DNA from: a virus
Taxonomy: Duplodnaviria; Caudoviricetes
Virus record (IMG/VR): IMGVR_UViG_3300021426_000070
Location: 65,360-129,359 of that record
DNA: 64,000 bases
Reading direction: 5' to 3' (one strand)
The notes beneath the pieces are model-generated. The model was given only the letters and a program-made list of their open reading frames with translations, ran no database searches and was not told the DNA's origin. Positions within the stretch are counted from its first letter, which is position 1. Each line of letters begins with the position of its first letter. The translations under genes were made by a program, and so were the position numbers. This document shows, in pieces, positions 3,713-24,827 of this stretch.

Positions 3713-3746
3713 TTGTTATTTTATCGTTTATTGAAATTTTTCAGAG

Positions 3747-3819
3747 TTGCGGCGGGGGAACTCGAATCCCCGACCTCCACCAAGTCAAAGTGGCAAGCTA
3801 CCATCTGCTCCACGCCGCG
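3747..3819 (-). tRNA. Atypical tRNA: initiator (fMet-type) body with GAC (Val) anticodon
   Basis: 73-nt cloverleaf CGCGGCG-TG-GAGC AGATGGTA GCTT-G-CCACT TTGACTT GGTGG-AGGTC-GGGGA TTCGAGT TCCCC-CGCCGCA-A; C1:A72 mismatch, A11:U24. Confidence 0.85.
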
Positions 3820-4318
3820 ATATTATTCTCTTGTTTATTATAAAACTTAAAGTACCTTTACTGCTTATATTATATTCTTGCATTAACTTCTTATATGATA
3901 CGCCATTTTGATTTTTCTTCTTTATCTCAAGTGCTATTTCGTCAGAAATCCTATTTTGTGTTTTTACCGCACTTGAAGCGTATTTTGCATTATAAACCCT
4001 AACTTCTTTAGGCACGTCCATCATATTTTCTTTATGTGTGCCAATATCTATATTACTATAGCTATTATCCTTAATATCGTTGTTTAAATGCCTTATTTCT
4101 AAATCTTTCTCATATATCTTATTACCAAACTTCTGATACGCTTGTAATCGATGGATATAAACCTTTATTACCTTCTTTTGGCTAACACGAACACCTAGAT
4201 ACATATAACCTTCTCTACCACAAGTACCTACTTTATTACCTCGTGGCGAATAGGCTTGTCCGCTTTTGTCAACGTAATAGCCCATTGATTTTGCAATCTC
4301 TTCGTAATGACTATACAT
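3785..4318 (-). CDS. HNH homing endonuclease (likely start 4318)
   Basis: YIHRL...IRHLNNDIKDNSYSNI...HKEN HNH_3-type motif, C-terminal HTH-like segment; AT-rich; promoter at 4339-4346. Confidence 0.85.
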   Translation of the reverse strand: MYSHYEEIAKSMGYYVDKSGQAYSPRGNKVGTCGREGYMYLGVRVSQKKVIKVYIHRLQAYQKFGNKIYEKDLEIRHLNNDIKDNSYSNIDIGTHKENMMDVPKEVRVYNAKYASSAVKTQNRISDEIALEIKKKNQNGVSYKKLMQEYNISSKGTLSFIINKRIISRRGADGSLPL

Positions 4319-4411
4319 ATCTTTTCTTTTCTCGCTTGCAAAGATAGCCACTTTATCTGACTTTGGCATATGTTTATCCATTTCTCTCGTTACCATTTAT
4401 AAAGTGTACCA

Positions 4412-19855: not shown

Positions 19856-19933
19856 TGGGCTTTGTCGGGTTCGAACCAACGTCACTCTTGCGAGTTCACT
19901 AGTACAAGCTCTACCAAATTGAGCTAAAAGCCC
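19856..19933 (-). ncRNA. tRNA-like RNA with collapsed anticodon arm
   Basis: Intact acceptor (GGGCTTT/AAAGCCC), D arm and T arm, ACTC-GCAA-GAGT extra arm, but only ~12 nt where the anticodon arm should be. Confidence 0.75.
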
Positions 19934-19942
19934 GTATTATAG

Positions 19943-20013
19943 TTAGCTCAATCGGATTCGAACCGATAATAACAGAACCAAAATCTGTTGTGTTACCATT
20001 ACACCATGAGCCA
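19943..20013 (-). tRNA. tRNA-Gln(TTG)
   Basis: Cloverleaf; ACAGA TTTTGGT TCTGT. Confidence 0.93.
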
Positions 20014-20018
20014 GTGTG

Positions 20019-20099
20019 TAGGGGTAATAGGACTCGAACCTATATACATTTCTGTGCTTGCTTTTGAAACAAGTGCGTCTACCATTTCGCCATACCCCC
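20019..20099 (-). tRNA. tRNA-Leu(CAA)
   Basis: Cloverleaf, long variable arm; loop TTCAAAA. Confidence 0.9.
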
Positions 20100-20169
20100 G
20101 TTTCCCGCCGCTGCGGGACTTGTTCTTTGTCGAACTAATAAGCTTAAGAATTTTATCACATTTTATAGT

Positions 20170-20258
20170 GGAGGGGAGACGGACTCGAACCGCCGACCAT
20201 ACAGCTATAGCGCAAAGCCTATAAGTTACTGCTGCTCTACCAACTGAGCTATCCCCCC
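20170..20258 (-). ncRNA. tRNA-like RNA with elongated anticodon arm
   Basis: Canonical acceptor/D/T arms; GCAG...CTGT encloses an extra TATAG/CTATA helix. Confidence 0.75.
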
Positions 20259-20329
20259 ATGCCCCACCGCTGTGGGAATTATGAAATTTAAAGTTATAAA
20301 TATTGCTATTCGTTTCACAACGTTTTTTG

Positions 20330-20410
20330 TGCCCCGAAAGGGAGTCGAACCCTTACGCCTTACGGCAAATGCTCTTAAAACATTCGTGTCTGCCATTTCA
20401 CCATCAGGGC
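20330..20410 (-). tRNA. tRNA-Leu(TAA)
   Basis: Cloverleaf, long variable arm; loop TTTAAGA. Confidence 0.93.
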
Positions 20411-20439
20411 TACCTCAATATGCCAAAGAAATACATCAG

Positions 20440-20512
20440 TGCAACGTGTGGGATTCGAACCCACGACCCCGAGATTAAAAATCACGTGCTCTGCCTACTG
20501 AGCTAACGTTAC
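20440..20512 (-). tRNA. tRNA-Lys(TTT)
   Basis: Cloverleaf; CGTGA TTTTTAA TCTCG (one U-U mismatch). Confidence 0.9.
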
Positions 20513-20522
20513 GGATTACCTT

Positions 20523-20700
20523 GCACACCGCCATGTCGTCACAGGCAACATCCCCAAGGATTTTAGGAGAAATCCACCCACATGCTACCCTTTCGGTCTT
20601 TTTGGGAATTACACCGATACTATCACATGCTTTAGTCCCGCTTTCTATATAGGTTGCGCCCCTTAACGCTTCCAAATGTACTCACTCGTGGTGCGTGTGC
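20523..20700 (-). ncRNA. Putative ~180-nt structured ncRNA between tRNA-Glu and tRNA-Lys
   Basis: Closing helix GCACAC/GTGTGC; internal hairpins GGATT..AATCC, ATGTTG..CGACAT, ACC-GAAA-GG. Confidence 0.45.
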
Positions 20701-20714
20701 TGATACAATACTTG

Positions 20715-20786
20715 TAGTCGTATGGAGAATCGAACTCCAATTATGAGAATGAAAATCTCACGTCCTAACCATTAGACGATACGACC
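20715..20786 (-). tRNA. tRNA-Glu(TTC)
   Basis: Cloverleaf; TGAGA TTTTCAT TCTCA. Confidence 0.92.
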
Positions 20787-24181: not shown

Positions 24182-24827
24182 TCATAGATTCTCGTATAAT
24201 AAAGTTAAATGGTTCTTCTTTATTTCTGGCAACTCGTATGATTTTCCAAACTGCCACTCGAACTGTTTTTTAAACTCTGCAACGTCAAACGGACGACATA
24301 TAAGATGAAATCCACTTTTTGTTGGAAAACTCATCATAACATTCTGCTTATTCTTGGAGCGTATATCATTTATATATCTTACAAGCCGTGTAAAATAATG
24401 CCCATCAGTGATATTGTCAGTATCAACCACCCACAGATTATTATCCTTAGCCTTGTATTTCCCGCAACAAGAATCAAAGATATGGTCAAACTGCTTATAG
24501 TCATGGGCAGCTATCCTACGTGCCTCTTCCGCTATCGTATCGAGGGCTATCTGCGACATCAGCTTGTAGTTGACGGATGCATACGCTCTGCAGTGTAACA
24601 GAGTGCATATATCCTTTATCTCTTGCTCATATTTCCGCAAGTCTGCCATGGAAAAGATATGGTAGTTCTTGAAGTGATAGTTTGCCGCTGGCATATCGGC
24701 ATTATCCTTTCCTCTGCGTATCAGCTCTATAACATAGAACTTATCAAGATTACCCTTCTCATTGTCCTCGGGCAACCCACCACATAGCTCTATAAGTTTT
24801 CTGTATAATTCAAAATTATCGGTCATA
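24182..24827 (-). CDS. Possible primase-polymerase (AEP)-like fold protein
   Basis: WVVDTD and PTKSGFHL motifs. Confidence 0.45.

Follow-up and report, generated by a model that had tools for sequence, protein, structure and literature searches.

The 64,000-nucleotide (nt) window examined here covers positions 65,360 to 129,359 of the viral IMG/VR record IMGVR_UViG_3300021426_000070 (Duplodnaviria; Caudoviricetes), the second half of a genome of 129,359 bases that is rated complete. On its minus strand it carries a transfer RNA (tRNA) that joins an initiator-type body to the anticodon GAC, hereafter tRNA(GAC), together with an ASCH-like gene and an open reading frame (ORF) for a homing endonuclease (Table 1). 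ARAGORN reports it as tRNA-Val (gac) at 3746-3819, one base beyond the span adopted here, among seven tRNAs in the window; eight other ARAGORN tRNAs occur in the whole genome, none of them a CAU initiator of the phage's own.

Table 1. Positions of the features discussed, in window coordinates unless another locus is named.
Feature	Position	Strand	Basis or remark
Initiator-type tRNA, anticodon GAC, loop UUGACUU	3747-3819	minus	ARAGORN, sequence, covariation of 19 variants
ASCH-like gene, 173 aa	3191-3712	minus	Starts 34 nt past the tRNA; weak Pfam ASCH match and alignment
HNH_3 homing-endonuclease ORF	3785-4396	minus	Pfam PF13392, E 4.6e-8
Candidate client gene, 222 codons	1430-2098 (ORF 1433-2098)	minus	GTC at 2098, context gccGA-GTC
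CAU sister tRNA of L231	L231:3038-3110		Initiator-type
CAU sister tRNA of L233	L233:5499-5571		Initiator-type

On reading the sequence, all the features listed for this tRNA in the first-pass annotation (73-nt cloverleaf, C1:A72 mismatch, determinants, GAC and U37) were found to be present. The acceptor stem is CGCGGCG/CGCCGCA, in which C1 faces A72 and is followed by G2:C71 and C3:G70. U8 and G9 lead into a D stem GAGC/GCUU with A11:U24 and G10•U25, and the anticodon stem CCACU/GGUGG closes a loop that places G34, A35 and C36 before U37 and U38. The variable loop AGGUC precedes a T arm GGGGA-UUCGAGU-UCCCC containing A53:U61, and A73 is the discriminator, CCA not being present in the DNA.

A mismatch at 1:72 is the hallmark of bacterial initiators, and it is accompanied here by the further initiator traits G2:C71, C3:G70 and A11:U24. 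The GGG/CCC pairs of the initiator anticodon stem (29:41, 30:40 and 31:39) are absent, their places being taken by A29:U41, C30:G40 and U31•G39, and CAU is replaced by GAC, both in the window and in every member of the family described below. The identity set of valyl-tRNA synthetase (ValRS), namely A35, C36 and A73, is present and invariant across that family. With regard to elongator tRNA-Val, position 1:72 is not Watson-Crick, 11:24 is A:U, and 37 is U and not a purine. tRNA(GAC) falls outside strict tRNAfMet (CAU, GGG/CCC) and outside elongator tRNA-Val (1:72, 11:24, 37). Outside the anticodon arm and the T stem it is nearly identical to the canonical CAU initiators recovered in the same scan, sharing with canonical tRNAfMet the 1:72 mismatch, the 2:71, 3:70 and 11:24 pairs, A73 and the variable loop AGGUC; unlike those initiators, which carry GGG/CCC, it has the anticodon GAC with a pyrimidine at 37 and lacks the three G:C pairs, and the window copy shows A53:U61. 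The Rfam tRNA model RF00005 did not report it at the gathering score (29 bits) or at E<=10, which fits its odd positions (U37, A53:U61 and the 1:72 mismatch); despite this miss, the cloverleaf is supported by ARAGORN and by covariation.

In a DNA search of phage records only an 80-nt tRNA stretch was matched, in Bacteroides phage BS-TP2 and in a faecal contig, the tRNA being unannotated in both. Taking together all family searches (by tRNA-body pattern, by loop pattern, two anchored only on the neighbouring protein, and a scan of bacterial genomes), more than 250 loci were gathered. The bacterial loci are prophages of Bacteroides, Parabacteroides, Phocaeicola, Prevotella, Alloprevotella, Hallella, Mediterranea, Candidatus Azobacteroides and Chryseobacterium. 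Among prophages of human-gut Bacteroides such loci are common, and BS-TP2 is an isolated, cultured phage carrier. When 19 distinct variants were aligned, 98.4% of the cells held standard pairs (82% paired in column shuffles and 36-48% with slid partners, as controls), and both sides change in 12 of the 20 pairs. The cloverleaf is far beyond chance. G2:C71, C3:G70, A11:U24, A73 and all seven loop bases are invariant, and 1:72 is always mismatched, mostly as C•A, as A•A in L130 and as C•U in Chryseobacterium; the keeping of three different mismatches points to the mismatch itself being under selection. The homolog search with covariation that had been proposed as a check of the first-pass annotation comes out in its favour, the stems covarying and the family showing neither CAT nor randomly varying anticodon arms.

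A degenerate relative of the family and a further non-standard initiator loop are also recorded. The degenerate element at L278:1405-1480, missed by ARAGORN, keeps the acceptor stem and a CUACU-UUGACUU-GGUAG arm with differing D and T arms, and the GTC-start ORF downstream of it is intact. In two viral loci among L003-L111, an initiator-body tRNA has the loop UUCAUUC (CAU, U37, C38). A reading of the window element as an attachment site (attP) or tRNA fragment was discarded, since the full cloverleaf covaries and, in BS-TP2, neither integrase is encoded anywhere near the copy.

An ordinary elongator tRNA-Val(GAC), boosting GUC decoding by the phage and retaining its initiator-like body as a relic of descent, would account for the Val type assigned by ARAGORN and for the match to ValRS identity, and the phage does have other elongator tRNAs. 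Such a role is nonetheless highly improbable, given that 1:72 is kept as a mismatch of three kinds across lineages with A11:U24 invariant, that U37 is abnormal, and that GUC is the least used Val codon of the phage (9.5 per 1000 versus 16-18 for the others). An elongator would, moreover, leave unexplained a set of genes that lack a usual start codon and open with GTC behind GA (written GA-GTC).

The clearest of these genes in the phage's own genome are seven paralogous small basic ORFs at genome 42.4-48.4 kb, located around the genes of the small terminase subunit and the intein-bearing large terminase. Each of them opens (G/A)A-GTC-A(G/A)A directly past an in-frame stop, giving the N-termini VRTNR, VKRLK, VRRRE, VRASK, VRRTK, VRRNK and VRGKS. 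No ATG, GTG or TTG occurs near their 5' ends, and in most of them none occurs until far inside, the first ATG of one paralog being codon 86 of 109. Pfam and PHROGs searches of the small proteins returned nothing useful. Stop-codon recoding that would join the tandem paralogs was rejected, as TAA or TAG stops stand between them and each unit restarts at GA-GTC. The intein interrupting the large terminase subunit, which lies at genome 42924-45230 (L216:2924-5230, minus strand, outside the window), comprises Hint and LAGLIDADG homing-endonuclease domains. Two more minus-strand ORFs outside the window, one opening GAGTCAGA at genome 49413 (123 codons) and the other GGGTCAGA at 24431 (91 codons), may be additional GTC-start genes.

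Inside the window, the candidate client of 222 codons has an ATG at 2086, four codons past its GTC, so that either start is possible. Its product is 41% identical (E 3e-54) to that of a 222-codon ORF in a 116-kb relative (L220:17286-17951), which opens TGA-GTC and reaches a canonical start no earlier than codon 53, already within the conserved part. No Pfam, NCBIfam or PHROG match was obtained for this 222-aa protein of the two large phages.

Other carriers show the same type of opening. An Arg/Gly-rich ORF of 47-84 codons opens GA-GTC 18-35 nt past the stop of the ASCH-like gene in 187 of the 188 tRNA(GAC) loci with room for it. Differences among variants in its codons 5' of the first internal ATG are mostly synonymous, which argues that the stretch upstream of that ATG is translated; in BS-TP2 the annotation of gp53 begins at the internal ATG, and 42-aa stubs are present among database copies of the protein. 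Fusion of the ASCH-like gene and the small ORF by read-through or frameshift was excluded, since the relative frame changes with the spacing and the GTC is often directly preceded by an in-frame TGA. In one relative a PAPS reductase opens TGA-GTC, with its Pfam domain starting at residue 21 and the next canonical start at codon 33, and its ortholog in BS-TP2 starts with ATG. More GTC-opening genes are found in whole relatives. In GAC loci, 227 kb contain 83 GAGTC-start candidates; in non-GAC loci, 87 kb contain 3, all three of the latter within the ASCH gene in another frame; a plain genome-wide count of startless ORFs per pentamer gave no discrimination.

Sister modules were then compared with regard to anticodon and start codon. 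Full-length database homologs of the Arg/Gly-rich protein start MARR... with ATG, and their loci share the gene order. In L231 and L233 a CAU tRNA stands at that place (loops CUCAUAA and CCCAUAA) and the start is ATG; in L232 there is no tRNA, and the start is again ATG. The 1:72 mismatch is kept in both CAU tRNAs and GGG/CCC is missing from them as well, so that the unusual anticodon stem predates the anticodon change. L234 has a GAC tRNA and its small protein starts with ATG, yet two other ORFs of this locus open GA-GTC, and one of them begins V-RKKSINDIF (GTC) where its L231 (CAU) ortholog begins M-ARRKSVNDIM (ATG), at the homologous codon. In an ASCH-anchored sample of loci, the small ORF starts with GTC in 63 loci with a GAC tRNA and with ATG in 14 loci without a tRNA and in 2 with a CAU tRNA; the lone apparent exception in this sample has a degenerate tRNA-like element whose acceptor stem and anticodon arm are those of the family. 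As far as the sequences go, this comparison shows phage genes for which GA-GUC is the sole possible start, with AUG used at that position by the sisters that have a CAU tRNA or none.

The bases ahead of the start codon were assessed in 66 distinct GTC-start contexts gathered without any requirement on upstream bases. Of these, 57 have A at -1 and 54 have G at -2. Where genes in those genomes start with ATG, T makes up 27-64% at -1 and is the commonest base in five of seven (A in G005 and G002), GA at -2 and -1 amounting to just 1-9%. The CAU sister tRNAs have A37 and A38, and TT precedes their ATG. A(-1) and G(-2) of the mRNA can pair, as judged by complementarity, with U37 and U38 of tRNA(GAC), and this complementarity could explain the odd loop, including the pyrimidine at 37 that had been flagged at the outset. 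A GCUGA consensus found upstream was also considered as a pairing partner for the anticodon stem's 3' strand and dropped for lack of covariation. With respect to the stem, replacement of U29:A41 by C29:G41 cuts ValRS charging 50-fold in E. coli (as cited in 10.1101/2021.05.25.445580), and by analogy the loss of G29:C41 may favour ValRS charging of tRNA(GAC).

The loop also bears on whether the RNA acts as a decoy or a replacement when host enzymes target initiator tRNA or tRNA-Val, with the GTC ORFs being translated by other means. Evasion of host anticodon nucleases has been put forward for phage tRNAs whose anticodon loop is altered (PMC10264068), and the loop of tRNA(GAC) differs at every position from the normal initiator loop. 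Such a decoy would nevertheless not need a loop complementary to GAGUC, nor an anticodon that tracks the start codon of neighbouring genes, and no defence or counter-defence gene is linked to tRNA(GAC); a role of this kind appears very remote. Of the three functions suggested in the first-pass annotation, initiation at a non-AUG codon (GUC) has gained weight from the GTC-only genes and from the ATG used in sisters with a CAU tRNA or none, while the decoy and the donation of an aminoacyl group outside the ribosome have found no support.

The preferred reading, to which we assign a probability of about 0.78 on the strength of sequence comparison and of analogy with engineered tRNAs, is that tRNA(GAC) is a phage initiator tRNA, charged with valine and formylated, that would decode GUC starts and so give these Bacteroidota phages a private start codon. 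Host ValRS would charge it through A35, C36 and A73, as happens with engineered E. coli initiator tRNAs, and host formyltransferase would then act on it through the 1:72 mismatch, G2:C71, C3:G70 and A11:U24, the mismatch also keeping it off EF-Tu. It would enter the ribosomal P site at GUC codons preceded by G-A, where pairing of U37/U38 with A(-1)/G(-2) would lengthen the codon-anticodon helix to some 5 base pairs, and this extended helix might make up for the missing GGG/CCC stem in Bacteroidota, in which Shine-Dalgarno pairing is lacking. The clients would be the small basic proteins encoded beside the terminase genes and, in relatives, the PAPS reductase and the 222-aa protein, and the outcome would be a start codon readable by the phage only.

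Several observations weigh against this reading: (i) the window tRNA is without the three G:C pairs that E. coli initiators require for P-site selection, so that its use in initiation is not assured; (ii) the clear client genes lie 21-27 kb away, outside the window, and the sole candidate client inside it also has the nearby ATG; (iii) CTGAGTCAG is a 4-1-4 palindrome, and GAGTC could be a DNA-level motif; and (iv) the start-codon state changes only once on the ASCH tree (independent-pairs test), so that the locus counts represent one evolutionary event, are not independent and carry no statistical claim. A stronger argument than these counts is that GTC starts appear to have arisen in several unrelated gene families, and exclusively in phages that carry the GAC tRNA.

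An engineered E. coli initiator tRNA with anticodon GAC, reading GUC, was reportedly obtained by Chattapadhyay, Pelka and Schulman in 1990. An engineered initiator with anticodon AAC, reading GUU, is a substrate of ValRS, and the proteins that it initiates begin with Val or formyl-Val (10.1101/2021.05.25.445580). Like the engineered initiator mutants (GAC, AAC and amber CUA), tRNA(GAC) sets a Val-type anticodon on an initiator body, and it would resemble them in ValRS charging, formylation and a Val or formyl-Val start at the matching non-AUG codon, orthogonal to AUG. Unlike them, it is natural and phage-encoded, its anticodon arm is wholly remodelled (no GGG/CCC; U32, U37 and U38), its clients have a fixed GA before the codon, and its host group is without Shine-Dalgarno pairing. 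No natural phage system of this kind was found in the literature searched, only engineered initiators (GAC, AAC, CUA); since the proposed mechanism matches that of the engineered GAC initiator and GUC, tRNA(GAC) would be a new natural variant of this pair.

Gut-phage suppressor tRNAs are said to recode stop codons (Borges et al. and Peters et al., both in 2022), and the likeness to them lies in a phage-borne tRNA that gives a private code to part of the genome; there, however, an elongator turns a stop into a sense codon, whereas here an initiator would turn a sense codon into a start. Extended pairing at initiation, with U(-1) and A(+4) of the mRNA facing A37 and U33, has reportedly been described by Ganoza and by Esposito et al. 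in 2003. The match between base -1 and base 37 is common to both cases (U with A37 before AUG, A with U37 before GUC), the difference being that here 37 and -1 are both switched, and likewise 38 and -2. We know of no earlier description of such a joint switch and, to our knowledge, all known natural bacterial initiation relies on one initiator tRNA (CAU) at AUG or near-cognates. If the reading holds, a natural initiator with another anticodon, matched to its own start, would constitute a new viral alteration of the code, parallel to stop recoding, and would offer a ready orthogonal initiation pair for Bacteroides engineering. It bears as well on the weight of bases 37 and 38 and of mRNA positions -1 and -2 in start choice without Shine-Dalgarno pairing. 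Gene callers shorten or miss GTC-start genes, and the cultured carrier BS-TP2 makes the system directly testable.

Regarding the neighbouring genes, an ASCH-like gene of 117-142 aa (173 aa in the window) follows the tRNA in every locus with room for it, at a distance of 16-40 nt and rarely up to about 250 nt, and it adjoins the tRNA even in two large phages in which the gene order is otherwise different. With Pfam ASCH (PF04266) the window protein scores 18.1 bits, under the 21.2-bit cut-off, and 5 of 11 members match, the best with E 1.6e-5. The window protein does align with the ASCH-like genes of other loci, and an N-terminal motif G-x-K-x-x-E-x-R is conserved among these proteins. A relative's model with a pLDDT (predicted local distance difference test) of 94 gave Z 8.9 to 3iuw, 6.5 to ZmASCH and 5.5 to YqfB; the fold model of the window protein itself is poor (pLDDT 56). 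A PDB sequence search, NCBIfam and the protein atlas yielded nothing useful.

Of 75 distinct sequences lying upstream of the tRNA, 61 contain a Bacteroidota -7 promoter box (TAnnTTTG) that ends 8-15 nt before it. Together with the close ASCH gene downstream in nearly all loci, the PUA-like RNA-binding fold of ASCH and the L278 variant, which retains only the acceptor stem and the anticodon arm, such a promoter directly upstream would suit an element that acts mainly in cis where the ASCH operon begins, as a regulatory signal or as a site processed by RNase P or RNase Z, or else an ASCH ligand, GAGTC then being a DNA or RNA motif unrelated to decoding. This is very improbable, as the ASCH-like and downstream genes are also found in phages without any tRNA, processing would need neither an invariant 7-nt loop nor A73 and the formylation determinants, and the anticodon would not switch together with start codons. 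Building instead on the decoding of GUC starts, a fuller scheme, tentative and rather doubtful as a whole, would be a natural reassignment of the start in which loop bases 34-38 read GA-GUC in place of the GGG/CCC check, ASCH loads or protects the tRNA, and packaging-region proteins are gated to an active phage operon.

In the window, the HNH_3 ORF sits where other phages have the TAnnTTTG promoter box, and it shares its final 35 nt with the 5' part of the tRNA; this ORF is an inserted neighbour, outside the tRNA system. Elsewhere in the window, an array at 19856-20786 on the minus strand contains tRNAs Gln-ttg, Leu-caa, Leu-taa, Lys-ttt and Glu-ttc, along with two odd members whose anticodon regions hold long insertions. 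One of these (20170-20258) is called 'tRNA-???' with a 4-base anticodon by ARAGORN and scores 44.4 bits with Rfam, and the other (19856-19933) is seen by Rfam alone, at 43.2 bits; both may be intron-bearing or non-standard tRNAs.
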